From assembly GCA_001724265.1 (NCBI GenBank), contig MEDY01000155.1, forward strand, positions 1 through 60,797: 60,797 nt of DNA, read 5' to 3'. A program made the position numbers and the translations under genes. Each line of letters begins with the position of its first letter. Within the stretch, counting starts at the first letter, position 1. A model generated the notes under the pieces. That model ran no database searches. It was not told where the DNA came from and worked only from the letters and a program-made list of their open reading frames with translations. This document shows positions 1 to 60,797 of this stretch, in pieces. The DNA comes from Rhizaria sp. SCN 62-66. Lineage: Eukaryota.

Positions 1-2666
1 AACGTCTCTCGCGCGAGCGCAAACGCGTGCGCGGGAACCATAACGGTCTCGAGCAAGTGCGCCGTCGACAGCCGCGCCGCGGGCTCGCTCAGCGCGCGCT
101 CCGCGGCGACCGCGGCCTCGGCGTCGGCCAGCGAGGGCCACAGAGGCGGCGCGGCGCGGTCCGCGGCCGCCATCGCGGCAACCGCGGCGGGCCGCAGCAG
201 CACAGTCGACGCGTCCAGAGTGACCACCGCACCGCACGCGACGCTTCCGGCCACGGCACGCGCGGCTGCAGCCAGCGGGGCGCAGTCTGGGCCTGCAGTG
301 GGGCGCTCTAAGTGGCCGCTGTTGAGGAGAGTGGATAAAAGAAGGCACGCGGCCCGGGCAGCAACGGCGCCGCCGACGGAGTGGCCGACAAAGACCACAC
401 GCGTCGGGGACTGCTGCTGCTGTTGCTACTGCGGCTGCGGCTTGTTATGCTCCGGCTGTTGTGAGGACAGCGCCGAGACGACTGTGAGCACAACCGCGAG
501 CACGTCGCGAGCCAGCGCCTCGGTGCCCAGCGCCGCCACCACGGGCTCCGGCGCGGGCGCGCGCGTGACGGCCACCGCGGCGGCGACGGGGCAGCGGTGT
601 TCGCCGCAGCCGCACTCGCACTCACAGTCGCACGCGCAAGGGCAGGCCGCACAGGCCGCGTTGCTGTTGCTGCTGCGGTTCACGTCCGCAGCGCGCCCCG
701 CGCCAAGTCCGGACCCGCAGCGGCACTAACACTCGCACGGAGGGCGGTCCGCGCTCGCCCGCCGCCGCTGCCGTGTCTGCACAGCAGCAGAAGCAGCAGC
801 GTGAGCAACAGCCGCGCCGGAAAAGGCGCCACCACTACTCTCACCGCCGGTTCTGCTACTACGGTCATCATCGCCGTCGTCGTCATCAGACTGCGGCGGC
901 GGCGGTGGCGCGATAACACCCCCGGCGCGCGCGCGCTGCCGCTGCCACCGCGCGCTCTCCGGACAGCGCGACTGACCGTGGGCGCGCAGGTCCACCGCGA
1001 GCAACCCCAGCGCCGGCCGCGGGGGGTAACTGTGAGCGGGCGCGGGGCAACCGTGGGCAGCGCTGGCGGCGTTTGAGTACGGCGGAATCGGTGACATAGC
1101 AGAGATCGAGGGCATTAGCGCTGTTGATGGAGGCACAGGTAGCGAGCTTGCAGTTGCAGATGTGACAAGCAAATGCTGCTGAGATTGCTGCTGAAGCATA
1201 TGCTGCATTTTCAGAAACTGCTACTGTTGCTAATGTTGCTGCAGCAGTTGCTACTTTTGGGACGCCGCAAACGCGGTGGCGGTGGCGTACCCGGCCGCCG
1301 CCGCCGCGGCCGCCGCGGAGGGCGCGAGGGTAGAGAACCGCGCCCACGGCGGCGGCAATGCGGCAGAATTACTCTCTGACAGCTGTGACGACTGCGATGA
1401 CTGCGACGTTCGACCGAGCCCCGGTGTGAATCCCTGCGTCGACCCCGGTGCCGGCGGCCCGTACGCGCGCGCGTGCTCCGGCGCACCGGGCTGGTGCTTG
1501 TCGCCAATCGCGGCGCGACCGTGGCCGTCGGCACTGCTGCTGTGTGGAACGGGCGGCATGACGGTGAACCCGGCGCGGAACGACGTCAGCGGGGCAGGAC
1601 GCTTCAGAAAACCTGACCGCGCGCTCCCGACCACACCCACCCCCACCCCCGCGCCCGCGTTCACGTCTGCGTTTGTGCCTGCTCGAGAGCTCGACGCAGA
1701 AGCAGATGTCTCTGTCTCGCTTGTACTCGGATTAGCATTGAACATAGGGACAAGAGGACGCACTGACGCCGCAAAGCCACCAGTCCGCTGTGGGTGCAGT
1801 TGCTGCTGACGTTGCGCTGACATGGATGTCGCCGCGGCCACTGCGACATCAGCCGCGGGCGCCGTCGCGTGCGCCGCGAGCGCCGCGGCGTGCGCGCGCG
1901 CGTTGGCCAGCGGCTGCAGCTGCGGCGGCAGCAGCCTGTCGAGCGTCTGCGCCAGCGCCGCGAAGGACGACGCGGCGCACGACACGCCATGCACAAACAC
2001 CAGCAGCGTCGACGGCAAAGGCAGAGGCAGAGGCGGCGTTGACTGCAGAGGCAGCGGAGCTGCAGGGCTCGCGCCAGAGCTCATGCCAGAGCTCACGCTA
2101 GAGCTAGGGCTCAAGTGCGAGATCGAGTTCGAGTTTGAGTTACGGTCAGAGTTCGCGCTTGTAGGAGCAATGGCAAGCGACTGTGAGCACGCGCTGCCGC
2201 CGCCGCCGGTGAGGGCGCTGGCGGGCAGCAGGGGCAGGCCGGCGGTGTAAATGCGGAACACGGTCTCGGTGGTCGCGTCGTCCGCGTCGCAGACGTCAGC
2301 GGTGCCCGTCGCGCATGACGCCGAGCCCGTGGCAGAGGCGGCGGCCTGAGATGACGTCGCTGATGGAGTCGCTGTCGGTGTTGCCGATGGTGTTGATGTG
2401 AGCGGTCGCTGTGGGGGAATCGGGAGGTCGTACGCAGCGTCAAATCCCGGGATGGGGCGCAGTGTGTGTGCCGGGTGCGAGTGTCCGATGCCATAGGCGC
2501 CCATCTGGCCTCCTGTAACCGCCGCGGAAGCCGGTGCCAGCGCCGACCGTGAGACCCTCCCTGACAGGCCGAGGTGCAGAGTCGCGACGGAGGGTCCGCT
2601 GAGAGGCTGCAGCAGCGTGGGAACAACCACACCGTGCACGCGGCACGTGGGCAGCGCGGGCTGCAT
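1..2666 (-). CDS. Alpha/beta hydrolase, protein phosphatase methylesterase 1 (PME-1/PPME1)-like; 3' end runs off the window; contains 5 in-frame TAG codons
   Basis: Track ORFs 1251..2666, 726..1208 and 426..683 and the unlisted frame below 425 share one reading frame, broken only by TAG at 1251-53, 1230-32, 1221-23, 726-28 and 426-28. Hydrolase motifs lie in the right order across the breaks: LLVFVHG (~1985-2005), LLAVDLRAHGQS (~970-1005), nucleophile elbow VFVGHSVGGAVA (GHSVGG 369-386), then VVTLDA. The frame stays open to the window edge. Confidence 0.8.
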
Positions 2667-6285: not shown

Positions 6286-8256
6286 TTACGCAGGTGCTCC
6301 AGCTTGGTAGCCACGCGCAGCAGAGGCAGCTGCAGCGTAGTAGGCGGCGGCAGCAGCGGCGGCGCGTGCGCCCGCGTACTGATTGAAGTACCGGCTCTGA
6401 GCGCGCTGTTCGCTAGAGTAGCTGTAGCTGTAGCTGTGGCTGTGGCTATGCTCGTAGCTACGGCTTTGACTGTTGCTACCGTTGTCGTTATCGCCCTCAT
6501 TAGACGCCGATTTAGAGCGGTCATGTGCAGACGCAGAGCCCGATTCCGTGTCGGCATCAGTGTCGCAGCCCATACTTGCACTACCATTGCGACGGTGAGC
6601 AGAATACGCCTGATGACTGTGGGTGGTCAACGAGTAGAAACACGTCGCCAGGGTCGCCGCCACGCCCACAGTCACGACGTCGGCGAGCGACAGCACAGCG
6701 GCACCGGGGCCTACCTGCCCCGCCGCAGTGGCAGCCAAAGCAGCCTTAGTCGGGGCCAACGCAGCAACTGCCGCGGCTGCACAAAGGCTGAGAGAACCAG
6801 TTGCTTGCGCAATGGCGCCTGCAGCGGGGGCAAACGCGGTCCAGAAGCGCCGCCCACAGTCACTCTTTGTAATCGTGTGCTCGCGGTCATTCTGAGTGGT
6901 CTGCTCACGTAACAGGTTAAAGCGCGCAGGAAACGCGGCCGCCAGGAGCACTGCAAGAGTTATAGTTGCAAACACACTAAGCGTCAGGCCAGCAAGAACG
7001 GCGTGGGGATCCGCACTGCCTGCAGACACTGTCGCAGCGCTGCTGTTGCTCGTATTCACGCCTGCAAAGACCATTCTGGTGGCAAACCCAACCGCGGGCG
7101 CGGCAGCAGCGGTAACCGCAACAGTCGCAAACAGAAGCACAACGGCCTGCTGTGCGAGCGCGAACGCCGTCTCCGCGAGCGCTGCGGCGGCTGTGACGGC
7201 CAGCGCGGCCGCGGCGGGCACGGTGAGCTCTGCAAGCGCCGCGGACGGGGCGAACAGCAGCGGCAAATTGGCGTCGACGCGCACGCGCGCCAGGAACGCG
7301 CCCACCGTGGCGGTCATCGTCTTCGCACGGGCGCTCCTGTACGTGATCGCGGCGAGCGCAGATGATAGCAGCGAGGGCCCGGCGGCGGCGGCGCGCAGGA
7401 TCAGCCACGCGAGCAGGGCCTGGACGCACAGAGCACTGACAAGCCACCGCAGAGGGGCGCTGGAAAGCAAATGCAGTGCAGCAGCCGTAGGTCTTGCGGG
7501 GAAGCGCGAAACGCCCGTGGTCGCGCTTGCAGGTTGAGTATCAACACCTGTGTTGTAGCTCTGAGACCACTCGTCGCTCGAATTATTGTTGGTGTCTTTT
7601 GTAGTGAATGAAGACACTGTGAATCGTAAGGGTTGACCAAACAACGGCTGCACTTGCTGCGGCAATGGCAACGCTGTGCTATTCAACACAAATGAGCTCG
7701 TGCGCTCTGCCCCGCAGCCCTCACAGTCAGTTGCACGTGCGGCAGGACGAGAGCCTAAGCTTGAGCCGGTAGCGTCCGCATGCAAGAGCGCCTCAAGAGC
7801 GGGACAAGGGGGGTCTACAACAGCGCCATTACTTGAAGGCAGTCTTGTTGCGTAAGGCGTTGTGATATACATGGCGAGTGCTGCCGCGAGTGCAAAGAAC
7901 ACCAGCGACGCGCGTAGCGAGCGGAGACCCGCGACAATCGTCTTGCGTGAGACCGGGGACTGTGCAAGCCCGCTGTCGTCAACCCCTGCAGAGGAGCTTG
8001 GGTCCGACTGCGGGGTCGCGGAGGCACCTTGTCGATGTGTATGAGACTGCGAATGCGCCGATGCAGAGCCAGAGCTTGTGTTCGCGCCTGCGCGTGTGAA
8101 CGGCTCGTGGCCAGAAGCAAAGTTTGGCGTGTTATGCTCACTGCGGGTGCCGGATGCATAATGTCGGCGCGGAGTGAAGAATGACGGCGGGGGAGAGCTA
8201 AAGCCCCAGGACTGCCTGCGGTGGGGCGCGGCGCCCGAGGGGAGGTCACTGTCCAT
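6286..8256 (-). CDS. Hypothetical multi-pass membrane protein, Ala/Ser-rich
   Basis: Uninterrupted ORF of about 656 codons from ATG 8256 to TAA, bounded by AT-rich spacers, with several hydrophobic stretches. No family recognised. Confidence 0.65.
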   Translation of the reverse strand: MDSDLPSGAAPHRRQSWGFSSPPPSFFTPRRHYASGTRSEHNTPNFASGHEPFTRAGANTSSGSASAHSQSHTHRQGASATPQSDPSSSAGVDDSGLAQSPVSRKTIVAGLRSLRASLVFFALAAALAMYITTPYATRLPSSNGAVVDPPCPALEALLHADATGSSLGSRPAARATDCEGCGAERTSSFVLNSTALPLPQQVQPLFGQPLRFTVSSFTTKDTNNNSSDEWSQSYNTGVDTQPASATTGVSRFPARPTAAALHLLSSAPLRWLVSALCVQALLAWLILRAAAAGPSLLSSALAAITYRSARAKTMTATVGAFLARVRVDANLPLLFAPSAALAELTVPAAAALAVTAAAALAETAFALAQQAVVLLFATVAVTAAAAPAVGFATRMVFAGVNTSNSSAATVSAGSADPHAVLAGLTLSVFATITLAVLLAAAFPARFNLLREQTTQNDREHTITKSDCGRRFWTAFAPAAGAIAQATGSLSLCAAAAVAALAPTKAALAATAAGQVGPGAAVLSLADVVTVGVAATLATCFYSLTTHSHQAYSAHRRNGSASMGCDTDADTESGSASAHDRSKSASNEGDNDNGSNSQSRSYEHSHSHSYSYSYSSEQRAQSRYFNQYAGARAAAAAAAYYAAAASAARGYQAGAPA

Positions 8257-8712
8257 CACGCAGTCAAACGGCTTGCGCAAGGACCGACTGGTTGCGGGAG
8301 ATAAGTGCCTACTATGTAAATATAAAAAGAAATTCGGTATTAAAAAGTAAATTTAATATTTGTACAGAGTGTGACTTTAATAAACGACGACTGTATACAA
8401 AATAAACTGTGTTTGAAGTGTTGTGACAAATCTAGCCGTTGGCTGCAAACCACTTTGCTGCCATTCCTTAGCGCCGCGAACTGTACACAAAACAAGCTAG
8501 ACGTTCAAGACAAGTGAAAGGTTCAGAATTAAATTTGAATTTATTCTATGTAACAAGCGGAATTATTTCTAAATATAAACGCCATTTTATCTCTAGGTAT
8601 CATACACAGATCCAAACCCAGCTCTACCGCATGGTTGTGGACTTGGACCTTCCCTACTCGTGCTGTCAGGTCGTTGACTGTTTCAAACAGCGCAGATATT
8701 ACGGCTGATCGC

Positions 8713-9537
8713 TCACGCGTCCATCTCGGCAAAAGGGTTTGCGTGCACGGTGATCGACTCGATCTCGATGGCCTCCGTGGGGCGGTTCTTCTTGTCCACG
8801 GGAGCCTCTTCGATCAGCTCCAGGACGGAAGTGCCGTAGATGAGGCGGCCGAAGACAGAGTTGACGTTGTCCAGGTGCGGCAGCTTGTCCATCGTAATAA
8901 AAAACTAAGGCGCGCGCAGCAAAGATGAAGCAACGCGATGAAAAAGCGAACGTGAAAGATTGGGACGTGAGCGAAGCAAACAAACAAGAGGAGTTATGTC
9001 ATAGCATGGGTGAAGATCGTGGAGTCAAGAGAGCCATGCATCATGAAAGGCGACAATGAATAGTCCGCAGATATCATGTTGTGCCGTACCTGCGAGCCGT
9101 TAGTGTTGGGCCCCTTGTTGGCCATGGAGAGCACGCCGCGCGCGTTGTGGCGCAACGACTCGACGATCTCATCGTCGAAGAATGGGCCGTAGATGGACTC
9201 GCCGCCCTTGCCCGTGCCCGAAGTGTCGCCGCCCTAAAAGAAGATAGTAAAAAGCAGTAAAACAATAGCGTGGGTGAGCATATGAGCGATTATGGTGTGT
9301 ACTGAGAGACTGTGACAAGCGCAACTGATTGAGAGAGACGTTGAGCATAGAGCATTTGCGCAGACGAGCGATAGAACGTACCTGGGCAATAAATCCGCGC
9401 ATGACGCGGTGAAACTTGGTGCCGTTGTAGGCCTCACTGGCGGCAAGAGCGAGAAAGTTCTTGCAGGTGCGCGGCGCGAGGTCGCAGTAGAGCTCGAACT
9501 TCATGTCACCCTTCGATGTGTGGATGGTCACCGACAT
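8713..9537 (-). CDS. PPIL3: Peptidyl-prolyl isomerase-like 3 (cyclophilin), 3 exons
   Basis: Exons 9537-9382, 9233-9090 and 8904-8713 splice to [19 protein letters not shown]...[27 protein letters not shown]...[16 protein letters not shown]...ITVHANPFA. Both introns are GTACG...AG. TGA stop. Confidence 0.95.
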
Positions 9538-9874
9538 GTGCAAAAGGGGGCCTACAGATCGAGAGGAACAACAAGTGCAAAAGAAACATAATTATAAAAT
9601 GTAAGCGGGAAGTGATCGTTGAATATCGGCCGTTTCAAAAATATATCATTTGACGATCAAACGGGAGCACATGAGCAAGAATGAACAAACCTAACAATCG
9701 CTCCCATTTCGCTGTCCACGAACGGCTTGGTCGCTCTTGTGGTTGGCAGCAATTTTCGTCAAAAGTTCGAGATCGGTCGGCGGCTTAACCTTTTTCGGCT
9801 CGGTCAGTCTGAGACGAGACGGGCCATGGCCAAGATGGCCCTCGTGAACAAAGGTAACTTTGAGCTTAACCAGA

Positions 9875-11645
9875 ATGCGTTTCATTGCTTTCTTCATTGC
9901 CATGCTTGTTGCTGGCGTCATGTCCGAGGTCTTCTTCTCTGAGAAGTTCAACGACGGTGGTACGTCCGCTTTTATTACCGAAATACGAAACCCGCAACTC
10001 ACCCATGAGCGATGCTGACATCAGCAGTCATATCCAGCCTCAGTTCGCATGACAAACTCATGATTCAGATAGTGCCCTTCTAGTACTATAAATTTAAGTA
10101 AGTCGCTCACCAATTCTCACTTGTCCCTTCTCAATTGCTCCGTTTTTTCTGCGTCTACAGAGGCCTGGAAGTCCCGCTGGACCGTCTCGGACCACAAGAA
10201 GGACGAGGGCACCGCCGGTGTTTGGGACGTCACTCCCGGCAAGATCTACGGCGATGCCGCTGCCGAGGCCGGTCTGACCACCACCGAGGACGCTCGCTTC
10301 TACGCCATCTCTTCCCAGATGAAGGAGTTCTCCTCCGTCGGCAAGACCCTCGTTGTCCAGTTCTCCGTCAAGCACGACCAGGGCATCGACTGCGGTGGTG
10401 GCTACATCAAGATTGCCCCCGCTGGCATTGACCAGACCAAGTTTAACGGCGACTCCCCCTACAACATCATGTTCGGCCCCGACATCTGCGGCGCCACCCG
10501 CCGCATCCACGCCATCTTCAACCATGAGGGCAAGAACAAGCTCATCTCCAAGGAGGTCTCCTGCGAGACGGACAAGAACACCCACGTCTACACCCTCATC
10601 GTCAACGGCGCTGACCTGACTTACCAGATCCTCGTCGACGGCGAGAAGCGCCAGTCCGGCAACCTCGAGGACGACTGGGATTTCCTCGCCCCCAAGCAGG
10701 TCCCCAACCCCGCCATCACCAAGCCCGCCGACTGGGTCGACGAGCCCATGATGGTGGACCCCGCCGACGTCAAGCCCGCCGACTACGACGACATCCCGGC
10801 CAAGATCCCCGACCCCGACGCGTTCAAGCCCGATGACTGGGACGAGGAGCTCGACGGCGTGTGGGAGGCCCCCACCATTGCCAACCCCGCCTTCAAGGGC
10901 CCCTGGCAGCCCAAGAAGATCGCTAACCCGGCCTACAAGGGCGCCTGGGAGCAGCCCAAGATGGACAACCCCGCCTATAAGGTACGCTTACGCCGCTATA
11001 ACGCGCACGGAACGCAACAATACCACACTGCTATGATCAAGTCTCCGTGTCCTGCACACGGGAGGCCTGTTGCGCGGTGCGGATACTGTTTCTCAGATCT
11101 TGCCTTTTGTTATTGAGTTCACTTTTTTCAATGTGTATTTATATGATGATCACATATCCGTGGCATACGGTGCAACGACTTTGTCGTTTGGCTACCGCAC
11201 TTGGTGCTTACACATCTTACCTACATTCTCTGACTTTCTGCACATGAATAATCTTACTCTTAAACAAAACAACAACGCTTCGCAATCGCTCCACTGCAAT
11301 CTTGTCTATGTCCGAACTCTCCCTCTCACATATTTCTTCCCTTCCTCTTCCTCATGTTTCCCACCACCTTAGCCCGACTCCACCATCGGCCAGTACAAGT
11401 CCAACGCGCTTGTCGGCTTCGAGATCTGGCAGGTCAAGGCCGGCACCGTGTTCGACAACATCCTCATCACCGACGACGTCGAGCTGGCCGCCGCTGAGGC
11501 CGCCGAGATGGCCGCCCGCCGCGACGGCGAGCGCGCCAAGATCGCCGAGGTGGAGAAGGCCGAGGCCGACAAGGCCCGCGAGGACATCGCCAAGGACCTC
11601 GCCGACGAGCCCGCTAAGGATGCCGAGAACAAGGATGAGCTCTAA
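9875..11645 (+). CDS. CALR: Calreticulin, 3 exons
   Basis: Exons 9875-9959, 10161-10981 and 11373-11645. Signal peptide MRFIAFFIAMLVAGVMS, motifs KHDQGIDCGGGYIK and IMFGPDICG, P-domain KPADW/KPDDWD repeats, EIWQVKAGTVFDNILITDD, and terminal KDEL followed by TAA. Confidence 0.98.
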
Positions 11646-12262: not shown

Positions 12263-15200
12263 TCATTGGTGCTGCTCAGGCGCAGGCTCCAAGGGCGAGT
12301 CAAAGCATTGCAGGTTCGATGCCTCGTCTCGCTTAATGCTTTGAATCGCACTACTTGTGTGACTGTGCGTGGCTGTGAGCGTGGGCGCTACACTAGGACC
12401 TGGAAGCTCCGGCAAACTGTCGTCGCGACTCAGCGACAGCGACTGAGAGGGTGACTGTGGTTGTTGGGTTCCCTGTGGGCGAGTGAGCAAGAGCTGTGAG
12501 TGTGACACAGAGTGGGAGCGCGAGAGCGAGTGCGAGTACGCGCGATTAGGGAGGCCGGGTTGCTCCTGTGAAGGCAAATGTGACTGTGACTCGGCCGGTT
12601 GGATGGGCGTCAGTATGGGTGGCTGCACTTGCGACTGCACAGCGGGCGAGTTCAGTGATGATGAGGGGCCGGGAGAGAATGGCAAGTGCAATTGTGGCAA
12701 TAGTGGCGACTGCAGTGAGGGCTGCTTATGTTGATGCTGCTGTCCATCCGTAGGCTGTTTAAGTAAAGCACAACCGTCTTCATCTTCAGCTTCAGTCAGT
12801 GGTTTCCCTGAGCTGCTATTGGCAGCTCGCTTAATCTGTCTATGCAAAGAAGACGCCGCGATGGATTTTGGCTGCAACTGCGACTGCGAAGGAGACTCTA
12901 GAGCGAGTCGTGACTCTGACTTTAGCAGCAGAGACGATGGTGACTTCCTGCAACTCCCTTGCGTCTGGGATAGCATCCGCGCTCGATCAGTGTGGTTGAT
13001 AGCTGCGCAAGTAGGGCGTTGGACATTCTCACGGTCACAGTCGCTGCCAGATGTTGTATCGACATCAGCGGCCTCATCATCGCCGTGGTCGTTACCGTCG
13101 CTCACCAGCGCAGATGGCGCTGTAGTTATCGCTCTTATGTTATTAGTTGCGCTCTCAATGGCAGTAGGCTCCACTAATTCTGAAGAAAGCCCACTACTGA
13201 GTGGGCGTGAAGTTGATGACGACTGTGGACTCACTGTTGCCGTGCTTTCGGATTGCGGCTTGCGCGATTGTGAGCATTGCGATTGCGAACGCGTTGAGTT
13301 CGGCTGTGTTGAGCGCGCGAGAGGCGACTGTACCCGACTACTGGAGGCCGAGTCAATTTTTAACTGTACACCTGAATTGCGCACACCCACATTATTAGAG
13401 GGTGGTGTCTTTGCGTTTGCTAACGCCTGCTGGGTGGAAACTAAAGCAAGTAATGCCGGTGCGGGATCTTGATTTTGCGTCTGCAATGAAGACGGCTCCG
13501 GTAAATGTAATTGTACATGAGGGCTTTGCGGCACCAGTGTCTGGGCTGCGGCGAGCGCCTGTGACCGATAATCCGTGAGATCTGGCGGTGCGACTGGCTG
13601 TGGCAGAGAATGCTGCACATGTTGCTGTAGCAGTGATGTTGGCAGCGGTACAGGCTGTGATGCAATTGAAAGCCGGGCCTGTGCCCATTGCCGCCACTCC
13701 TCCGACTGCAAGCTCAGCGTACTCAACTGCCGGTGACTACTGCGAACAAGCTCGTGTTCTTCCCAGTGATCGTCCTCGCGGTCACACTCGCCGGGATCAC
13801 AGTCTCCGTGTCCACAGTCGGCAAGGTCCTCGCCTGCGTGGTGTGAGCGCGCGCGCTCAGCCCCAGTAGCGCCACGTCGATGTTGCCGCAGACCGGGGCT
13901 TGTGCATGCCACTGCGGGCGAGCCGGGCGCTGGTAATGAGAGTGCAAATGACACGCGCTGTTGGTTGCCGACAACGTGAGGGGCATGCAGCGTAGTTACT
14001 GCCAGCTTTGGAATCGTTGCCACTATTGCTGTTTGGGCTGCAGTTGGAGTGGCATGCCGTGTGTCTATATCCTGAGTGATGGTGAAAGGTGGCTGCATCG
14101 GCATGCGCACCGGAAGCGCATCTGCTTTTGTCGCACCAGCAGGATCCACGGCACTGCAGTTGGCAACTATCTTTCTTGCATCAACGTGCTCATTGTCTGT
14201 CATGGCAAGTGATCCATCATTGGTGCTGTCAATAGAGTCGCTGTAAACTACGTCAGCCTTTGTCGCAAGGATCCTAAAAGAGCTGTCGCTGTCCGCTGAG
14301 CCAAGCTGGCTGTTGCGCAGCTTGGTCGTAACTGTGGCAAACACACCAGCTGTGCGCTGGACCTTATTGTCCTCCTCCTCTTCTTCCTCTTCTTCGCATG
14401 ACTGATGCTGAGTGGCCTTAGCTCCGTGGTTTGCAACAATCGCAGACACCACATTATCAACAGGCAAGATGTTGCCCGCTTCGGACGTTAAATCCATTGC
14501 GACTTGCGCTGCAGCAACCGACTCTGCGACAGCGAGTAACGCAGTGCGGGCCATTTCCCACACGCCGGGCATTAAGTGGCGCAGCGGTGCGCGCGCTGCG
14601 ACCTCTGCGGCCGAGAGTGGGGCTGCATTTGAACGACTGTAAGGACACTGGGAGAAGACAAGGCATGGCACCGAAGCTACACGGCTACCTGTGATTGAGT
14701 CCTTTGTCGCGGCAGTGTGCCTGCGCAGGGTCTGCTACACGTGTGTAAGTTGAGTCGTAACGGGAATAAGAGAGTCGTAGTGAGTGCCTGTGAAGCTAAG
14801 TGTCACCCCAGTCCAGTCCTTACTTGTTGTTGCTAAGTCTTTACGCTGACAGTCAGCATGGGTGTGATTAGCGGTTGGGCCCCAATGTGGGGTAAGAGCA
14901 GCATGGGCAAGAGCGCGCGCGCTCCAATGATGGGTCACAGTTGTCGGCAAGTTTAGTTGCGTTGCAAGTGTTGACTGTGCAGCGCTGTTTGAGGCTTGCA
15001 AACAACAACTTGAGCTCGCGTCACTGTGCATTGCTGCAACGTTGGGCAATAATGGAGGAAGAGGTGGCAGTGCGGGCAGCTGCGGCATGTCATGAATTAG
15101 AGTTAGGGAGACAGCACTGTTTTCTATGCTCGGGTTTTGAAGACATGAGCATGTAGGAAGCATACATGTGCAGTCGCTCCCGTAAGCTTTCATCCACTGC

Positions 15201-17398
15201 CCCCGATGCTGACTCAACAGCGCTGCGTGTTCCATTTCGGCCGCAGGACCAACACTAATTTCAGCGGCCTCTAGCCCGGCCTTAATAACAGCAGCTTGAC
15301 CCCACGGCGCCCGTCCAGCACCAACGTAACGCTGACCCCTTGCCTTCTCCGCAGCAGCCCCGGCACCAGCACTCATGACAGTAACAGCGGAAGAAGAAGG
15401 CGCACCGGAGTGATGCTGTACTTCTGTCACGCTCGCCGCGCAACCATCGCTTCTCAGAGTGGCTGAACTTGCTGTGGCCGTAACTGTCGCGAGACTTGCA
15501 ACAGAAAGCCGCCGCCAGTGCGCGGCCGCAGCCCCCGGCCCGCCTGCAACAGCGGCGTCCCATTGCCACTCTGCCCGCGCGCCCGCCAACGCATCGCTGC
15601 CGCGACGACCTGACGCGCTGCTGCTATCGTGGTTGTGGTCGTGGTCGACACTCTCACCGCGCTTACTGCGTCCTTTAAACGGACCAGTAATAACCGCAGG
15701 ATTAAGGGATGGTGGCGCGCGCAACAGTCTAATTGACGGCAGGGCAGCAGTGGTTGGAGATGGCACCCCTGGGAGCTCCTCGGCTTTATTACCTTTCTTG
15801 TTATTGCGGTTGCGGACTCTGATACGCTCGGCACTTGATCCGCTGCTACTGCTCAAAAGACTACTGTCGACATTTACCTTGCGCGTAGGCCTTATAGCTG
15901 GAACGGCAGCGGCAATAGCAACAGCCGGTGAAAGCATGCCAGTTCGGTTGCTGACATTGCTGTCGACGGCTGTGACAACCGCACTAGGCACACTGTCTCC
16001 GTTGTCATCAACTGCGTTTGCGCTAATGCCGCGATACGCTGCATGTGGAACAGCCGCAGGTAACTGTAGTGCGCAGGTAATACCGACTGCAACATCACTG
16101 TTGACTACGCTGCCCTTTTCCGCAAGTTCTGTTTTAGATGTGGCGTTTTGCTGATACTCCTGTGCTCGAGATAATTGCAGATTGCTGTCAACGGCTCCAT
16201 TGCGACTGGATCCTGGTGGCAGTGCTGCTGTTGCAAGAACGGTGCGCACACACCGCAGCGTAGTCTCAAAGTCCAGCCGACTCCAGCCTTGCTGCAACAC
16301 AGGATCGGGCGTATATTTGTGTAGAGTCAACTGTGTGCCGCACTTACACTCGTGATCAGCGCTGTTCAAGCTGCTTGAAACAGCCTGCGCATTGAGAAGA
16401 GTAAGCTTTTGGTCAGCAAGTGCCACATGTTTGGAACATGTGGTAACATGCTCGTTTTTGTTTGCATCACGTGGTTTGAACGCATACACGGTGATCTCGC
16501 ACCCGTACACGTCCGCGGCCGCCTGCAGCTCGACCTCGCCGCCCCACTCGCCCAACCGTGCCAGCTTTGCCGCGTACACCACCGGCGGCGCGGCCAAAAA
16601 CGCCTCGTACAGCTGCGGCGGCGCGAGCGCAAGCCAGTGCGCAATCGCTGTGCGCACTGCGCGGTGCGCGCGGGGAGTGCCATAGAGGGACCGAGCGAGC
16701 GCGCGGAACAGGCAGTTGCCGTCACCTTGCTCTGTCAGCAGCGAGAAACGCGCCGGAAACGGACACCGCAAAGACACTGCGTGTCTTGCTAATGAAGAGG
16801 CTAAGAACACTGATTGGGTTTGCTTCTGTGTCGCATGTGTGACGAACGATGGTGGCGGTGTGGGAGGCACGCATGGGGCTATGAGGGCCAGTCGCGCGGC
16901 TAGGAGCTTGCGCAGGTTAGTAAAGCGAGGCTGATGCGCGGGCAACAGTGGGGGCAATCCAGCGTCATCTCTGATTGAGATTGTGTCTCTGCTCGCGTTC
17001 TCGGTCGCGTTGCTGTTTTGCGTGCTGTCGGGCAGCGCGGAGTCGATGAGGCGAAGCGCGAGGGCAAGCTGGTCGTTCTGAGACAGAGAGCGCACGGCTG
17101 AAGCATATGCGCTGTCAAGTGAGGCCCGAGTATCTGCAGCCTTAATAACAAAGGTGGCACTAGAGAGATTTAAGGAGCATTGGTTACCGCAGTGAGAGAC
17201 CTGAATGGGTGAAGCACACGGAAGGAAAGGAGAACCTCGTTTGAGCACTACGTACGGGGACAATAGCGCAGGCGCTTGAGAAACTATAAGACTTTTCCTG
17301 GGCTGAACGCGCGTAGATGGACTCAATGATACGTCATCTTTTGTAAAAGGCTCGACAGTAGCCGTCGGTGAAGGTTGTTCAAGTTGGTGTGCCTGCAT
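12263..17398 (-). CDS. OTU-family deubiquitinase, about 1711 aa, with 1 in-frame TAG
   Basis: GDGNCLFRA (Cys at ~16713), WGGEVELQAAADVY, and HYDSL (His at ~14781). Track ORFs 14735..17398 and 12263..14671 are in frame and joined by LTHV-TAG-QTLRRHTAATKDSITGSRVAS with no other stop. Ends at TGA. Confidence 0.8.
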
Positions 17399-18881
17399 CT
17401 TCCTTCAGTTCGGTGATGAGCGGCACACACAAAAATGTCTCTTGAAACGCCACCCAATAAAGGATTCCTACAAAAATAGAAATTGAAATACGTTGTTAGT
17501 ATTAAAGAAAATTATTATAGCATGTCAAACAATCTTTTGACGACAGATTCAATGCAGGCAGCGTGATGATAGATCTCACATTGTTGTTTTGGTCGACTTG
17601 AACAAAGCATCAGCAACAAAAAATCGGGTTCGTATTCGAGCGAGCACATGACAACAGTCGGATCTCTAAATAAATAATAGATAATTATATTTTTAAAGTC
17701 AGAACTGCATGTTCTCAAGCTCAGCTTGTCCGTTCATGTCTATGTTTTCAAATCAGCGTCTGAGTCGCTTGAACAGCTCATATCGTGTAAGAGCTTCACA
17801 AAGACACATGTGTGTCACAAATATATGGCATTCTTTTTGTACAATCAAGTCTGCTTTTCTATGAAGAAATTTAAGTTCATTGTTGAAACTTGATTCATCT
17901 CTTTGTTGAAAGGGGTGAAGGGGCGTGAGTAATCGTAACATTAAAGCACGATGTTTTGACCCAGTATCCGGACATCGCCGATAGCGCAAAAGTCTTCAGC
18001 GAGTCAAAGAAATTGGTAAACTTGGCATTCATATACTGTTTCCGTTAACGTTGGGACCAGTTGGTGCTAGATATCGATGAAAAAGTGGGCGACGAGGTCG
18101 ACAACCTCGGTCACGGTGAGCTTCGAGATCTCTTTGACGTCGGACTCGCCAGAGTTGATGTGGACAAATTGACCTGGTTCAGTCCTTACCATGGTTATAA
18201 ATGTGTGCCTATCTATTTTTGTTTAGTTCCGCCGCTGTTTGAAACAGTATGCACTTCGTCAAACTTACCACCTTCTTGCGAGCCGCCGTTATTCGTGGTG
18301 GGAACGACAGCTACATAAGTTTAGCCGCTATAATTAGACTGGGTTTTTGTGCTATGTAGAGTATATTGGCTCGAGATAAAAGACCTCCCGACGTACGGGC
18401 TCTTCCGCTCTGATCCTACTCTTCACGTAAAGTGAATTCGCAAAGAATTTGCTCCGTACTACTGTCATTACTGTTGAGCGAGACAAACAAAGTTCAAGTT
18501 TATTTAAATGACGACCAACGGGATAGCACCCCTTATTGTCACCGTACTCATGTTAATTTGAGTATCACCCGTCGCCTCATCGTCGTCGACAACGACAACG
18601 AGCAGCGTTAAGCTTACCAGCATTAGCTCGAGTGTTAGAAGCACTAGTGCTCGCGCACTTACGCACGCGAGTGAAGTACTTGTGCCGCCGATTGTGCTTG
18701 TGGCCAATGATAAGACCGGCTGTGTTGCTGCGCTTTGTAAGAGAAAAACAGAAGCGAAAATCGTGGCGTAAAGGCATGTCATTGTAAGTGTGTACGTGAC
18801 ACTTATGCTCTCTCGGCCATCTCAAAGCGACAAGAGACTAATGCTGCGGCTTAACACACGATTGAACTGCCCACGGTTCGC

Positions 18882-41834: not shown

Positions 41835-44666
41835 ATGGAGCTTACTCACGCCGTCCGCGAGGTGATTGGGTCCGTGCTGTCGCCCTCAGCTCGCGCTGCC
41901 GCGACCCAACTGGCCCGCGGCACTCGCCTCACGTCGACTGACTACGATGTCACGCGCACGGACTTCCACATTCCCCGCGCCTAGATTCTAGACATGGTCG
42001 ACATTGAGCTTCCCGCTACACCGAGCGTATCTGAGCTTGCGACACCCCACGACGACGGCGCTCTCCGCGATGCGCTGTCACGACTCGCAGCATCAGTCGA
42101 CATCGTGGGTCATCTTTATCACCGCTACCTGACTGCCGTCAAGTTTATGAAGAAGCGCCGCGAAGAGGCCGCCGAAGAGCTTGAGGCGGGTGGCTCAGAC
42201 GAGGAGGTTGTTGACACTGATATGACTAACGGCGGTGACGATGGTGATGATAGGAGCGATATCAACAACGCAGATGAGTAGCAGGAGGAAGCGAAGGACG
42301 ACAACGACGATGAGGCGGCCAACAACAGAGACACCAATGCCGCCGATGAGATCAACAACCACGAAAACGGGGACGCTGACGCCGAGCATCTGATCGACGA
42401 CGAAGACATTCCTCTGATCACCGGCACAATCGCCGAGATCAGGGAGCGCGTCAGTGCCACCGCCGCCGCTGTGCGTGAGGGCGCGAGCAACCTCAAGTAC
42501 GTTTTCCTCTGCAAGCGCGTGCTGCGCTTTCTGCGGCGCCGCTTTGAGCATTTCTACGACACGCCCGCCGCGCTCGCCGAGACGCTCGCAGCGCTGACGC
42601 CATTGCTGGGCTCGCGCGATCAGATCGACGCGACGCTGACGGCCGTGGCGGTGCGCGGCCTGGTTATCGCGGCGCCGCGCCGCCACCGCGGGCGGTTTGC
42701 GCGCGCGGCTGCGCTACCGATGTACGCAGCGCTGCTGGCTGCGCCGCTGACGAGCCCACTGCTGGTGGAAGCGCTGGCGAACTGCCTTGATTACTGCTGT
42801 ACGTACAGTGAGCGGGCCGTGTTCAAGGTTTATGCGCTCGGCAGCCCGGTTCCGGTGAGACTCCCCGTTTCTGATCATGGCGATGAGGAAGCAGCGAATG
42901 GTTCCGATGAGATCACCAACGTCAAGCTCAACGATGATGCGCAAGATCCGGAAAGTTCACAGTGCGCCTCTGACCACTCAGGCGTGGACCTGCTACCAAC
43001 GTCATTCGACAACTGCGCAGAGTTCGCGCTGTTGCGGCTGGCAGAACGTGCACTGCGCACAGTGCCATGCACGCAGAGTGCATACGGCGACATGGCCGCT
43101 GCGCTTGTGACGTGTGCTATGAAGTGTCTCGAGAACCGTCACGGCGCGTCTTACGTGGTCACGGATCTCTTTACGAGCAAGTGCATCACGGCGCACTACG
43201 CGGCGTCGCGGGTGTCCGCGCACTCGCTTGTTGTTGCGCCGTTGGTCGGGCTTGTCTGCAAGGCATTTCTCGACGATACCACCTCGTACATTGTTAACGA
43301 CGACGACGCGATGAACGCCAGCACCGATGCGAGGGCCAAGCGTGACCTATTTGTCAAACGGGCTAGCCACCGAGAGCGCTTGCAGCAAGTTATTGAGATG
43401 TCACGCGACCTGATTGGCGCTCTCGTCAACAACAACCTTGACACGGCAATGAAGCTGCCGTTTGAGAAGCCTGAGTTCAACTCTGCATTCCTGATTGACG
43501 ACTTTGATAGCGCGCTTTGGTTGCACAAGGGGCACGTAGTCGATGCGTGGCGCGCTGCCTGCGACACAGCGCTTGCGGCGGTGCGCGCCTCTGTGGGCCC
43601 GGGCGTGGCGGCGCAAATCGCCGCAGTGCGCGGCCGCGAGGAGACCAACATCCACGCATACATCAACGCCGTCCTCGCGTCTAAGAACCGGGACAGGATT
43701 TGCATTTCAGTCCCGGCCGCTCTAAGCAAACACGACCCTGTGGCGGCGCTGTCGGCTGAGGCGCTAACCGCGAACATGATGAGTCTCCTGCCGCTGCTGC
43801 CAGTGGCGCCTGCTCCGTTCTTTGAGAAGACCCTCTTCGTCCCTTGGTGCGATCTCATGACCGCGTTCGTCAAACAAGACAGCGGCGTGTCCATCGACTT
43901 TGACAACTTCATTTATCTCCTGACCACGGTGCGCCACGGCTGCGGGTTTGCGTTTCACCGCCTGCTTTCGCCGCCGGTTTACGCCGCCGGCCACCGCCTG
44001 GTGCAGCCCGTGGTCGACCTGCTGGGCCCGCTGACGTCCACACCGACGCTCAAGTGCGTCACGCGCGGCCCGCTCACTGCGCGCGACACGGCCGCGGGTG
44101 AGCGCTGGAGGGACGGCTACGCGTTGCACGAGGACGGCACGCCGCCGGTGCCGCGCGACGCCGTGTCCGCCGGCGCCGACCTGTCGCAGTCGCACCTGGA
44201 CGCGCTGCTGGCGCTGCTGCAGATCGGCGAGGTCGACACCGTTCACTGGGCTGCGTACCTGCTGATCCTGTACGTGGAGCTCGACTACTTGTTCTACACC
44301 GCGCCCGGCTGGGAGGCGACGCCGCTGCTCGCGCGCGCAGGGCTGCTGCCTGTGATGGCCGCAACGACGCGCCGCTTGGGCGGCGACGTGACGAAGATTC
44401 TCGCCGAGCTGCTCGCGAAAATGGGTCCCATCCTCTGCAATATGGCCGCAACGCGCACAAGTAGTGGCAAGGACAGCAAGGACGGCCAGCCACAGCTTCG
44501 GCCGCAGTCGCAGCTGACCGAGTTCCAGCAGCAGTGGCTGCGCGAGAACGTGGTCGCCCCGGTGCGGACGCTGTGCGTGGACCGGGCGTTCGCGGCCGCG
44601 GTGGAGGCCAAGTCGTCCGACGTGGCGTGGCGGCGGTTCGAGAGAGAGCTCCTCACCGAGCTGTGA
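41835..44666 (+). CDS. Hypothetical helical (ARM/HEAT-like) protein, 943 aa, with 2 in-frame TAG
   Basis: ATG 41835 (MELTHAVREVIG...) is in frame with track ORFs 41994..42281 and 42471..44666. The only interruptions are TAG at 41982-84 (IPRA-x-ILDM) and 42279-81 (NADE-x-QEEAKD). TGA stop. The fold is an impression from Leu/Ala amphipathic patterning. Confidence 0.72.
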
Positions 44667-47990: not shown

Positions 47991-48342
47991 GGGCACGGCT
48001 GAGAGCGACAAAAGCGGGGCGCATACAAAGGGTTATGAGAAGTTATGAGGCATTTCAAAAACAAATATTCAGTAAAAATCAAATTAATTATGGGTTCCAC
48101 ATGCTGTTGCTCGAATAACGGTCGTTGCAGCGAGACGTCGGCGCTTCCCGGAAGTGCGGTCCGCAGCTACACGCCTGTTTGACCAGTCACCACTTGACAC
48201 TCCACTCCACCACAAACGGTTACTGATTCTTCCGATAGTGAGATCTCCATAAAATAAGCGATTTTCAGGTTAAATTCGAATTATTATGTATTGCGTAGCT
48301 ATATAACGGTGATGATAACTTATTTCATGAATTCGCGCCGGT

Positions 48343-49534
48343 TTAGTGTTGGGTATCTTGTCCCGCGAGCACGGCCCTGACCTGCGCCGCCATCTCCCGC
48401 AGCTGCCACAGCGGCGGCAGCGTCTCCGCGAACGCCACCGACACGGACGCGTCGCGGAAGGCCTCGGGGCGCATTGTCCGCGCCTCGACCTCCAGCCCCG
48501 GCTCCGGTCCGTGACCTGACAGCGACTGCGACTTCGGTGATTGTGGCTTTGGTGATTGCGATTTGTCACTTGCCCGTTGCAGCACAGCGCCACTGCCCGC
48601 CTGTGCTGCACACCCCGCCTCGCCAGCTTGCGTTTGCGCCACAATCTGCAGCGTGAACCGCGCCCTGCAGCGCACAAATACCTCGTTGACCCACACGCCG
48701 CGGACACGCCCGGCCGGGATAAAGGACGTCGCCCCGTTCGCCAGCCCCCCCGTGAGGGCCGGGGGCGGGGTCACGAGGTAGGACGGCGCGTTGAGGGTGG
48801 GTGCAAGAAAAGATACGGGGTAGGTAAAGCTGTATAACGCAATACCGACGCCGTATTCGACGTACAAACGTTCTGTCACGTACACGCAAAATCACACAAC
48901 ACAAGAAGTAGGTTATAAACACCTTTAAGATAGAATTCACATGATTCTTTCCGACCAGTATGCAATATATTGAAATACATTCGTTTAGCCGTATTTTGCA
49001 CTGACACGTACCTTCAACGACGGTGTTCTTGAGCACCACCGCGCACGCCGCGATAACGACTGCCGCCGCGGCCGCGACAGCGCCGGGGTCGACCGCGGGG
49101 GCCGCAGCGAGCGCGGCGGAGACCGAGTGCAGCGTGCGCGCGTATGGGGTGTCGGTCACAGCCTGTGCGAGCGCCATGAAAAGCTTTAACGTAGCGACTG
49201 CGGTGAGTGTGGCGAGCAAGCAGAGCTTCGCGAGCTCGAGTACGACGGCGGCGGGCAGCGCCGCGGAGCACCACGGCCGACGCGGAGGGCGCCGTGAGGA
49301 GAAGAGCGCGCGGCCCGGGGCGCGCAGCAGCGTGCGAATCTGCCAGGCCGGGCGCGCGCGCGACGCCGAGATGGCGCCGCCGGTACAACTCCGGTTATCA
49401 TAGCCATGACCACTGTTGTCCTGACCACATTCATTAGAGGTGGCGCTCGTACAGGGGTTCACAAAAGCGCTATCTGCGCTAACAGCACGCGGGTGCGCAA
49501 CAGATGCGCTGCTTCGCGTTCTGGTCGCGGGCAT
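48343..49534 (-). CDS. PIGH: GPI-GlcNAc transferase subunit H (PIG-H/Gpi15), 2 exons, about 350 aa
   Basis: Exons 49534-49012 and 48872-48343. Two TM segments, then VVE|ERLYVEYGVGI, FIPAGRVRGVWVNE and VAFAETLPPLWQL, matching the PIG-H pattern. TAA stop. Confidence 0.8.
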
Positions 49535-49857
49535 CGTGACTGTGGTGATTTGGGCTGAGGGCCGGGCGCGGGGCAGCCTGGTGCAAGGGTCGGTCGTGGT
49601 GGCTCTCAGGTCTGGTTTCTTACAAAGATGCTATAGAACGTAAAAAGAGGACTTGAATTGTTTAATTAAAGTATTATATTTGAAATGGTGACGATAATTT
49701 GGGATATTAACTGCACCCATGTTAACGGACGATGTGCGGACCTTTGGTGTATTCTCTTAGCACGAGCTTTGATCTTTGCCCTCGCCAACCGTTGGGCTCT
49801 TTCCATCTGCGCTCACCCAGCTTTCCCATCGCACTCTCTCGTTCCTACACCAGATCC

Positions 49858-54467: not shown

Positions 54468-54799
54468 TCACATGCGGCGCCTGAAGCCGGCGGGCACCAT
54501 AGTCACCTCACAGCATGCCTGGAAGGACTGCAACACTTCGGCGTCGAACGGCTCGTCCCCGCTGTCGCCCGCCGCTGTCACTGTGCCCGCCACGCACGAC
54601 ACCACGCGGCCGACGGGCACTACGCCGCGCAGCAGGCTCACGGGGCACGGCTTGAAGACGATGAACCACGACGTGTCATTAGGCCCAATCATAAGCTGCG
54701 GTGTGAAGGGCGTGACGCTGCGGGGGTAGAACAGCACCGTGCCGACGATATACGTCGCTGCGACATCGGCGTCAGCGCCCACAGTCGTCGTCGTCGTCG

Positions 54800-54831
<32 letters not shown>

Positions 54832-57005
54832 GGCGTCGTCGTCGTCGTCGGCGGCGGCGCGGCGTATTCGCCGTAGACGATGTCGCGCGCCGGAAGGGAG
54901 ATCTGCGCAGTGGCACAGCGGTGATCTGCCGCGATGATGGCAATGTGGCGGCCGATGGTGAGAAAAGGCAGCGACGCAGCCGTGTCCACCCCGTGGGAAA
55001 GAAGGCACGGATGCGGCATAGTGGTGCTCATGTTGGAGGTCTTCGTCGCAGCACGGAAGTGCGCAGCATTGCACGGAAGTCGCTCATCATCGAGTCGGAT
55101 GACAACCCGGAAGTCGCGTTGCTCGCGTTGCGGAACGTTAGTGATTTCCATTTTCATTATCACATCCGACGCCACGTGCTCAGCTTTCACGTTTTCAAGA
55201 GCGTATGACAGGACGCGTTCGCGCGCCCTGGCCTGAAGCAGCGACAGTGCCGCTTCAGAGGGCGCACCGTTGACTCGCACAGGGGGCGTCTGGTCATCCG
55301 ACCTCCGAGGGTAACCACTCTCTTCCAGACTGCGTGTGATGTGCGCATCGAACGCGCATTCCCAGTCGTTGTCCGGCGACGAGAACGCACGCGTGTCTGC
55401 AATAGTCTGCAGGCGCAACTCCTCCGTCGCGGCTGTGTCCGGCGCAATAACCCCCATACTCATCAGCAGTTTGCGAAGATTTGTCAGCTCGTGTAGCACG
55501 GGGCCGCCGTCGCCTTGGTGCGCGCAGGCATCGTGGCGCAGCAGCTCGAGCGCCTGCAGCCCGCGACCTGCGATGAGCTCAACCACGGCGGGATTGGGCG
55601 ACGCAACGGCGCTGTCATAAACTGCCGCGTCAGGCGAGGTGTCGCACATGATGATAAAAGAAAACAGCATTGCCAGATGACGCACAGCGAGGTCTGCACG
55701 CGTCTGTTCAAAATTAGGAGGATCGTTAGGGCCACGCTTTCGAATCGGGAAGCGCATCAGAAAAGTACAGATAAGCTTTACAGCACCAATATTACGCAGC
55801 TGGCGCGCCGCGTGCGTAGTATTCGGGGCGCTGTCGATAATGCAACCGAATAAAACCGTACAGTTGCGTTGTAACGTCATTTCCATCACAGGATGAAGGC
55901 CTTCGCGAGCATGATCATTGATGTTGCTTAGCATCCGCGTAAATCCAGGCGAGCACAAGAGCCTCTGCGCAACAGCAGGCATATGAGCGACCATCGATGC
56001 AAATACACCAATACACACGATTCCGCGATGAGCTTCTTCGATTGTGAACGTTTCGATGGGCGCCAAAAGGCGCTCAAGGCGTTCATCTGTGAAAGCGAGT
56101 GAAAAGGTGGCATCATCAAAGAGCTTCAGCAGGGTATCAAGTTGCAGCAAACTGGCTTTGCTCGAAAGTTGCAGGAACTCATCAAACTCATCACTGACGG
56201 CAAAGTCAGTAAGATCGCTGCAGCGGTGCGCATCGTCCCTTTCATCTCCACTCGTGCGCGTGAACAGAACGAGCAAGGTGTCGTAAGTCAAGCGTTGAAT
56301 GTCCCTGCTCAGCATGTGGCGCGTTTTATAGCGCCGAGCAATGCCGCAAAACAACGGGACCATGGGGGCCACAACAGCGTACGCAAGCTGGGGCGCCTTG
56401 ACGCCGTTGATGGTGGGGCTGAAGAGAAGCACAGACAGAACTTTGCTCAGTTTAAGGTGGAGGTTGAGATTGTCGCGAGTCAGCTGCTCCGGGCTAACAT
56501 ATTCCTGCACTGAACTCGCCCGTACAAACGAGGCAATGTGCGTCAGCGCGTCGAGCCGAATCTGCGTGGTGAGGACCGCATTGTTTGCAATCAGGTCAAC
56601 AATCCAGAGGAGATCTAAACACATCTTCGGGCTCATGTGAGGCGCAAGGAGAGATGCAGTCAGCGCCTCAACAGCGCCACTATCCACAAGCAAACAACAA
56701 CCGTCTTTGCACACGCCCAAGTAGTCAAACAAGGTGATGAGGTCTTTGACGCACTTCATGAAGACCTATGCATGTGGTGCATCAGTGAAGTGCAGCGACT
56801 GCACAAGCAGCGCAATGACCCCGCTCTCACGAAGCGTGAGGATGTTTTGAGTGCGGTCTAAAGACTCATCCATCAGTTTGTATGAAGAAACATGATCTGT
56901 CGTTAGAGAGGTGATACGTGCTATCGTCTCATGGACACGACGGAGAGCGCGCTTCTTAGCCGCCTGACTCTCACACTGTGCCTCCTCAGAGTTGGCCAGA
57001 GACAT
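54468..57005 (-). CDS. Helical-repeat (ARM-like) protein with a C-terminal degenerate cyclophilin-like domain, 845 aa, with 1 in-frame TAG
   Basis: ATG 57005 (MSLANSEE). Track ORFs 56766..57155 and 54468..56759 are in frame and joined by APHA-TAG-VF-MKCV. Contains ARM-like segments ESGVIALLV, DSGAVEAL and NIGAVKLI. TGA stop. Confidence 0.72.
54784..54849. repeat. (GTC)n microsatellite encoding poly-Thr on the minus strand
   Basis: About 22 near-perfect GTC units visible directly in the sequence. Confidence 0.95.
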
Positions 57006-57845
57006 ATCGTATGTTGTCACAAGATGAGGTGCAGCCGAGAGCGTAGGTAACAGCAGTATATTCACATACAGCTGCACACACGCCCAAATGAATACCTGCG
57101 AGGTTATGAAACCGTTTCTGTGTCTTCTATAAGTTACCAAATGGCAAACGCACAATGTGCGCGTTGAGGCAGGAGAGTGCGAGTGCAGTTCTTCATAAGA
57201 TATCTCAATTTTAAAAGCATTGAATTTAATAATAGCTAGAACGCCGCTTTTAAACCAACATTTTTAGCTAGTAATGCATAAATACGATGAGCCCATTGCG
57301 TAATACATGTTCGAAGATGCGCAACCAAGGGGCAATACGGTTCACCACAAAAGTTTTTTGAGCGACCATGGTGACACATAATCACGAAAAAGCTATCACA
57401 GAGAGCACCTTTAGAGCTGCTGTCAGGGCAATAATGCACTTGTTGGTCATAACGAGTTGTTACGTTTATTATGCTGCGTCATATGGTTGTCACATGTCCT
57501 AGCGCGGCATTCATCACTATATTTACGACATAGGACTACAACTTTACTAGTACTTCGACAATGACACTCAGAAATAAAGGATAAGGCTTACGATAGAAAA
57601 AGAAAAAAGAAAACAAAAGAAGGTTTTAACACAAGACAGCACGGGTGATAAAGGTCCCACTGACTTTTGGGTTTATCATGTCGTCTGATAAGAACAACCA
57701 AAACAACAACAGACGACAAACCAAACACCCGTTCTTCAGTTAACACCATAGGACTAGGAGTGGGATAACACAGGGGGAAGAATGCGTACAGATATTCTTC
57801 GTTTAGTCGCTGTTCAGAGATCAAACTTGAGTGATACTGGGCGGT

Positions 57846-60797: not shown

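Follow-up and report, generated by a model that had tools for sequence, protein, structure and literature searches.

The 60,797-base contig MEDY01000155.1, which was analysed over its whole length and is called the window here, has a GC content of 61% and bears nuclear genes of an ordinary eukaryotic kind on each strand. Four long reading frames among them, named genes A to D in what follows, contain TAG codons in frame, and it is the meaning of these codons that is considered here: UAG is probably read as an amino acid in this genome, with glutamine as the leading candidate and with UAA and UGA as the terminators. Metagenomes of bioreactors, wastewater, activated sludge and microbial fuel cells, produced in several studies, contain near-identical DNA, and the source is therefore an uncultured eukaryote assembled from metagenomes, whose contigs reach up to 172 kb.

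Nine in-frame TAG codons in four genes

A first-pass annotation, made from the letters of the sequence, had placed in-frame TAGs at 426, 726, 1221, 1230, 1251, 14735 and 56766 on the minus strand and at 41982 and 42279 on the plus strand, and all nine were found in place. The frames that it had described as uninterrupted were so. The gene A frame (3-2774, minus strand, 924 codons, five TAGs), the gene B frame (12266-17404, minus strand, 1713 codons, one TAG), the gene C frame (54471-57263, minus strand, 931 codons, one TAG) and the gene D frame (41799-44663, plus strand, 955 codons, two TAGs) hold neither TAA nor TGA in a total of 4,523 codons and require no frameshift, while in each of the five other frames of these stretches there are 10-72 TAA and TGA codons. 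Over a whole open reading frame (ORF) such an absence is a consequence of how the frame is defined; the parts supported by homology or by a domain are likewise free of in-frame TAA and TGA. The TAG is crossed by homologue alignments at two sites, in gene D, and by a Pfam domain at one, in gene A.

The density of these codons is low, at nine in about 12,100 codons, and the seven other long genes of the window (7,588 codons) have no TAG in frame. The TAGs seen just upstream of other ORFs either precede the first ATG or belong to 3' splice sites, and are hence non-coding. The TAG-bearing genes show a weaker bias in GC content at third codon positions (GC3) and use more CAA, with a CAA:CAG ratio of 68:140 as against 27:157 in the seven strongly GC3-biased genes that are free of TAG. 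Two general scans were uninformative. In a test of the ORF flanks for each stop type, TAG could not be told from TGA, since GC-rich genes leave their off-frames open, and a log-odds scan of codon usage failed to set the three stop codons apart, owing to the same open off-frames and to a GC3 that ranges from 0.53 to 0.90 among genes.

Conservation across the TAG codons of gene D

The best case is gene D (41835..44666, plus strand), which encodes a lineage-restricted protein of 943 residues, ends in TGA and has its TAGs at 41982-41984 and 42279-42281. When 1.84 billion cluster representatives were searched in full with HMMER, 11 matches were returned, all of them environmental and several on contigs of 70-160 kb, and the family could serve as a lineage marker. 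Three of the 11 are the window's own gene, present as separate ORFs that cover residues 1-49, 54-148 and 213-943 and are cut at both TAGs. The 725-residue P0126 aligns to residues 3-673 of gene D, spanning both TAGs, and P0135 aligns to residues 1-102 without a gap, at 53% identity and with an E value of 5e-32, across TAG 41982; in-frame protein conservation therefore runs through this codon. The alignment column at TAG 41982, which is the sole informative one, has Q in P0126, E in P0135 (the closest homologue) and T in P0130, and TAG 42279 stands within an acidic run, DE-TAG-QEE.

ORF pieces bounded by the gene D TAGs were found on five and seven contigs (JGI, Logan, ENA). Cutting at TAG was also looked for among the relatives of gene D, where two pieces share one 69,998-base contig, but one of them shows a frame change and the case was not taken as evidence for TAG. 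A scan of metagenome contigs with gene D, which had keyed on low-complexity patterns, found no further DNA of the organism or its relatives.

A hydrolase domain across a TAG in gene A

Gene A (3..2774, minus strand), whose 3' end lies off the window, is an alpha/beta-hydrolase-like gene with long low-complexity inserts and five in-frame TAGs. Its 346-residue piece at 3-1040 matches Pfam Abhydrolase_6 over residues 177-313 with 27.0 bits, against a cut-off of 26.3, and TAG 426 is residue 205, inside the match. The piece that follows this TAG begins at position 64 of the 217 positions of the profile and has no ATG for about 95 codons; the remainder of the domain must therefore sit upstream of TAG 426. 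In the gene A frame LLVFVHG, LLAVDLRAHGQS and VVFVGHSVGG, which we take to be alpha/beta-hydrolase motifs, occur in their usual order, and all five TAGs fall in the low-complexity inserts between such hydrolase-like stretches. The N-terminal part alone gave no match in Pfam, and a sequence search of the PDB with the hydrolase part gave none either.

The TAG at 426..428 (minus strand) interrupts the run CCG CAG CCG CAG TAG CAA CAG CAG CAG CAG, which is identical in an independent DNA contig (X3 record 1). The three TAGs at 1221, 1230 and 1251 (1221..1253, minus strand) stand within 11 codons of a run rich in CAA and CAG (CAR codons) and are again identical in the X3 DNA; between 1063 and 1289 there are 13 CAR codons in the coding frame, as against five and one in the other two frames. 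The remaining TAG, at 726..728 (minus strand), falls within a Cys-X repeat (CEC-TAG-CRC) and was recovered in an RNA contig (X6 record 17) and in two DNA contigs (X3 record 1 and X5 record 9). Alternating Cys-X repeats of this kind extend over 570-740 (CEC-TAG-CRCG ... CPCACDCECECGCG), inside an insert of the alpha/beta-hydrolase.

Genes B and C

The two other genes make weaker cases. Gene B (12263..17404, minus strand) has an OTU domain (E 3e-9) and one TAG, at 14735-14737, with 889 open codons before it and 823 after it, where the other frames hold 34-72 TAA and TGA codons. Contigs of the complementary DNA run X7 flank this TAG on both sides, and none among those listed crosses it, which leaves a gap at 14545-14932. 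Gene C (54468..57008, minus strand) encodes an orphan helical protein, and its TAG at 56766-56768 lies 78 codons past the likely ATG. Searches for homologues of gene C gave no match, not even the window's own ORF, and so say nothing about relatives, the word index having probably been saturated by poly-Thr. The poly-Thr run is encoded on the minus strand by a (GTC)x22 repeat at 54784-54850, which probably swamped these word-based searches. A model of gene C residues 1-420 built with AlphaFold2 without an alignment was unusable, with a mean predicted local distance difference test score (pLDDT) of 48.8.

DNA, RNA and splicing

The X3 DNA assembly, which comes from another study, is identical to the window over 306-2468 and thus reproduces five of the nine TAGs, and DNA from X5 also covers TAG 726. 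The TAGs are not assembly errors, as they are found in independent assemblies and at the ends of ORF pieces on multiple contigs.

The calreticulin gene (9875..11645, plus strand, three exons, Pfam Calreticulin E 1.8e-69) was used as a control for splicing and expression and in the search for relatives. Its two introns of 201 and 391 nt are of the GT..AG type, and the exon joints were seen in RNA contigs of the poly(A) run X6 and of the X7 run. Neither run has any depth in the intergenic bins 7969-8632 and 17265-18592, although the DNA runs do; spliced calreticulin and empty intergenic bins together therefore mark X6 and X7 as largely RNA. In bins 1-1328 the RNA depth is inflated by cross-matches to GCC repeats, and the joints reported there are spurious. 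The X6 contig over 525-787 spans TAG 726 with no splice joint.

Five introns were seen in the window, of 148, 155, 185, 201 and 391 nt, at 9234-9381, 45721-45875, 8905-9089, 9959-10160 and 10980-11372, and all of them start with GTACG. Their GC content is 0.44-0.48 in the four that were measured, and each of the five is closed by stops in two frames or more. Such uniformity of the 5' splice site is unusual, and three of the five introns end in TAG.

Gene ends

The first-pass annotation had counted 18 gene ends, 12 in TGA and six in TAA, with none in TAG. The zero for TAG was borne out, while the recount came to 17 ends, 12 in TGA and five in TAA; two further TGA ends of ORFs were left out of it, that of RED1 at 50821, where the frame probably runs on into an intron, and that of a doubtful ORF at 48566-49756. 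One of the ends is informative by itself: the TAA of calreticulin (11643..11645, plus strand) comes directly after a C-terminal KDEL and is a true stop, because the KDEL retrieval signal must be C-terminal, and the calreticulin on the mRNA contig L001 of a relative likewise ends in KDEL-TAA. With a TAG share of 20%, the probability of finding no TAG in 17 ends would be 0.02, and TAG usage climbs with GC3 across eukaryotes according to the account in PMC9348620.

If in-frame TAA tracked TAG in the way that CAA tracks CAG, 4.4 in-frame TAA codons would be expected, and none was seen (P = 0.013). This shortfall and the KDEL-TAA led to the rejection of a code in which both UAA and UAG mean Gln (UAR=Gln, NCBI table 6). 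An ambiguous stop/sense code of the Condylostoma or Blastocrithidia type was set aside because TAG is at none of the 17 ends, a sample that is too small to speak against rare use.

The meaning of UAG

That UAG is a dedicated sense codon is given a probability of about 0.77. The first-pass proposal that UAG is sense and that UAA and UGA are stops is upheld within the window by the alignments and the Pfam domain that cross TAGs, by the 17 gene ends without a TAG and by the KDEL-TAA of calreticulin. Its further suggestion that the amino acid is probably Gln is plausible from context, namely from the four of nine TAGs that stand in CAG/CAA runs (PQPQ-TAG-QQQQQ and QK-TAG-QLLQQH-TAG-QQ-TAG-Q) and from the Q/E/T column; conserved columns do not demonstrate it. 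A CAA or CAG codon follows six of the nine TAGs and precedes two, a point that was absent from that annotation. The column at TAG 41982 suits Q or E, whereas L, Y and W do not fit it. Gln is the common denominator of the contexts, and the Q runs may merely record an origin from CAG. Granted that TAG is sense, Gln is the likely meaning, and the complete pattern in which UAG stands for Gln and UAA and UGA are the sole terminators (the NCBI table 15 pattern) is favoured somewhat beyond even odds.

A number of observations weigh against this reading. TAG falls in a strongly conserved column at none of the sites, there being one informative aligned column, with Q, E and T, and low conservation and much low-complexity sequence characterise all four TAG-bearing genes. 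The context of six of the nine TAGs, UAG-CAR, is a leaky one. If the true share of TAG among gene ends were 15%, the probability of seeing none in 17 would be 0.06, for a small sample from a single 61-kb window. Among the RNA contigs listed, one of the nine TAGs is covered, and the contig concerned, that of X6 over TAG 726, has one difference whose position was not located and which might be at the TAG. A donor-like GTACG motif at 1290, 37 nt upstream of the three-TAG cluster, allows a hypothetical in-frame intron of 228 or 261 nt, although the periodicity of the CAR codons speaks against it. The first ATG past TAG 14735 of gene B is 53 codons downstream, which makes two genes in the same frame possible, and gene C is the weakest case, as an ATG three codons after TAG 56766 could be the start under the standard code, the TAG then falling in the 5' untranslated region (UTR). 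The window has no tRNA gene according to ARAGORN, run with and without introns, and Rfam gave no match at all.

Among the alternatives, UAG might be sense and yet specify another amino acid, such as Glu or Leu, with the TAGs of the Q runs marking only their mutational origin from CAG. The E of the closest homologue and the T of another at TAG 41982 would suit this, as would the acidic surroundings of TAG 42279, and a Leu would give gene A a natural Q/L-rich pattern; precedents for UAG as Leu, Glu or Ser exist in other lineages, as described in PMC11687900 and PMC5304391. A synonymous CAG-to-TAG change is, however, the simplest account of PQPQ-TAG-QQQQQ and of the CAR run with its three TAGs in 11 codons, and both the Q/E/T column and the acidic site speak against L, Y and W. 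Another amino acid than Gln is on the whole unlikely.

The main rival to a dedicated sense codon is an ambiguous or leaky UAG, which eRF1 still recognises and at which some genes end, while a tRNA-Gln reads through it in favourable contexts; this would amount to a context-dependent code or to an intermediate stage of reassignment. The CAA or CAG after six of the nine TAGs puts a C behind the stop, where true stops are mostly followed by G (nine of the 17 listed ORF ends), and the sample of 17 gene ends is small. For Q-rich mRNAs of yeast, 2-8% readthrough with insertion of Gln is described at stops that have Gln codons next to them (PMC13192750). However, none of the 17 ends is a TAG. Five readthroughs would be required for the product of gene A and two for that of gene D, where one of the sites is codon 50; at a few percent each, almost no full-length protein would be made. 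TAGs 726, 41982 and 56766, moreover, are without the leaky context. The low yield at 2-8% per site and the three context-free TAGs therefore make efficient decoding more likely, and leakiness is given a rather slim chance. Programmed readthrough, in which a single leaky stop yields a minor isoform, was rejected in view of five and two TAGs per gene, one of them at codon 50, and of an essential domain beyond.

The standard code fares worst. It would require the TAGs to belong to introns that went unrecognised, to 5' UTRs, to the gaps between adjacent genes in the same frame or to decaying pseudogenes. Generic in-frame GT..YAG introns can indeed be drawn around every TAG, the GTACG motif is at hand near the three-TAG cluster, genes B and C each permit a two-gene or a UTR reading, and the genes affected are poorly conserved. 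Homology and a Pfam domain nevertheless cross TAGs in frame, and the surroundings of the TAGs are exon-like and CAR-periodic, unlike the introns with their GC of 0.44-0.48 and their stops in at least two frames. The X6 contig over TAG 726 is unspliced, and GTACG donors are absent upstream of six of the nine TAGs, the three-TAG cluster being the one place with candidates. As for pseudogenes, random nonsense mutation of the four genes would yield TAG at all nine nonsense codons with a probability of 0.001-0.005, hence at most 0.005, and there are no frameshifts. Retention of the standard code is accordingly considered very improbable.

With UAG as a dedicated Gln codon, other eukaryotes that have reassigned UAG would suggest a tRNA-Gln whose anticodon, CUA, differs from CUG by a single base and reads UAG and not UAA, together with an eRF1 whose hold on UAG is lost or weakened; the eRF1 gene lies outside the 61-kb window. 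New TAG codons could then arise freely from CAG by a C-to-T change, and it is because of such an origin, as proposed, that TAGs would cluster in CAG/CAA runs and in the genes of weaker GC3. A more far-reaching proposal is that of an independent UAG-only reassignment at an early stage, in an unplaced, GC-rich, mitochondriate and flagellated lineage known solely from metagenomes of wastewater and bioreactors, which is put forward tentatively and is doubtful as it stands. The rarity of TAG, its limitation to weakly biased genes and Q runs and the C or CAR that follows it would suggest that eRF1 still competes for UAG, and the organism could then represent a natural intermediate on the way from readthrough driven by Gln codons to full reassignment, against GC pressure and not under AT bias.

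Relation to known codes

In the accounts of PMC11687900 and PMC5304391, a code in which UAG means Gln and UAA still terminates is given for Iotanema spirale (Fornicata), Protocruzia tuzeti and two lineages of phyllopharyngean ciliates, and the mechanism proposed in PMC5304391 combines a tRNA(CUA) that a single mutation separates from tRNA-Gln(CUG) with changes in eRF1, such as T32G in Iotanema. The window resembles these table 15 lineages in that UAG alone occurs in frame, UAA and UGA end genes and Gln is likely; it differs from them in that TAG is rare and that context, rather than conserved columns, points to Gln. Fornicates are not known to have an organelle genome, and phyllopharyngeans have AT-rich, gene-sized chromosomes. 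It is because of these features that the window fits neither group, with its 61% GC, contigs to 172 kb, spliceosomal introns of 148-391 nt and an MRM1-like enzyme with a presequence-like N-terminus. The code UAR=Gln (table 6) is found in many ciliates, diplomonads, oxymonads, ulvophytes and Amoeboaphelidium. The window shares with it a change from stop to Gln, presumably through a mutated tRNA-Gln, but TAA terminates here, as KDEL-TAA indicates.

Elsewhere, UAG=Leu is described for a rhizarian and for some ciliates and UAG=Ser for Scotinosphaera (PMC11687900, PMC5304391). The rhizarian exLh (UAG=Leu, with UAA and UGA as stops) is similar in having a UAG-only change outside the ciliates, and the best named match of the window's calreticulin, at 62%, is the rhizarian Lapot gusevi, which gives no placement. 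The context in the window points to Gln or Glu and not to Leu, however, and in-frame UAG is far sparser than in exLh, for which 384 in 71 genes are given in PMC5304391. A further likeness is with the readthrough of Gln-flanked (QXQ) or UAG-CAR stops in organisms with the standard code, as six of the nine TAGs are followed by CAR and four stand in Q-rich runs. Unlike such readthrough, at 2-8% per site, the window has up to five sites in a gene and, in the 943-residue protein of gene D, a site as early as codon 50, and none of its genes ends in TAG.

The UAG-only reassignment is probably real; codes of this kind are known, and the lineage may be a new one. A search of the literature, with supplements outside its scope, found no report of UAG reassignment in a wastewater eukaryote. 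UAA and UAG nearly always change their meaning jointly, and cases that involve UAG alone are few in the accounts cited (PMC11687900, PMC5304391); a GC-rich, intron-bearing case outside the ciliates would, if true, be an independent data point on the uncoupling of the two codons, and its low TAG density and CAR-biased context could show an early stage of reassignment. There is also a practical side, as public protein sets already cut the organism's genes at TAG through the use of standard-code gene callers, with gene D in three pieces, and annotation of the organism's contigs therefore needs table 15.

Other genes of the window and related organisms

The gene content is that of a typical nuclear contig, with domain matches to a DHHC palmitoyltransferase, an OTU protease and a DUF2921/RING E3 ligase, and with calreticulin (by Pfam), Dcc1, an MRM1-like SpoU methyltransferase, a RED-like protein, CFAP298, an EF-hand protein, EMC6 and a cyclophilin. 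The membership of CFAP298 in its family was confirmed by a protein atlas look-up, and its presence in the sequence implies that the organism has cilia or flagella. The stretch at 38400-41800, about 3.4 kb long and AT-richer, has no ORF of more than 257 codons and no Pfam match and so forms a gene desert in an otherwise compact contig.

The nearest relatives of the calreticulin are 65-79% identical to it and all environmental, and the best named matches, Lapot gusevi (62%) and Colponema vietnamica (59%), do not lead to a placement. A scan of metagenome contigs with P0011 yielded calreticulin contigs only, of which the short L050 and L051 are identical to the window over 8246-10441. A tblastn search of all window proteins against 55 loci found calreticulin only, and scans of genome contigs and of viral contigs for further DNA of the organism or its relatives found none. 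The poly(A) run X6 contains contigs of a related organism. One of these, with CFAP298, has 37 differences in 347 nt from window 18961-19307, nearly all of the listed ones spaced by multiples of three, and another, with calreticulin, has 19 differences in 441 nt from window 10541-10981; relatives therefore share activated sludge with the organism.

The MRM1-like SpoU methyltransferase (window 44860-48032) has an extension of about 570 residues ahead of its substrate-binding domain. Its N-terminus is Arg-rich, has no acidic residue at all and resembles a mitochondrial presequence, and a phase-0 intron of 155 nt interrupts its conserved DGVQ|DPENIGA motif.

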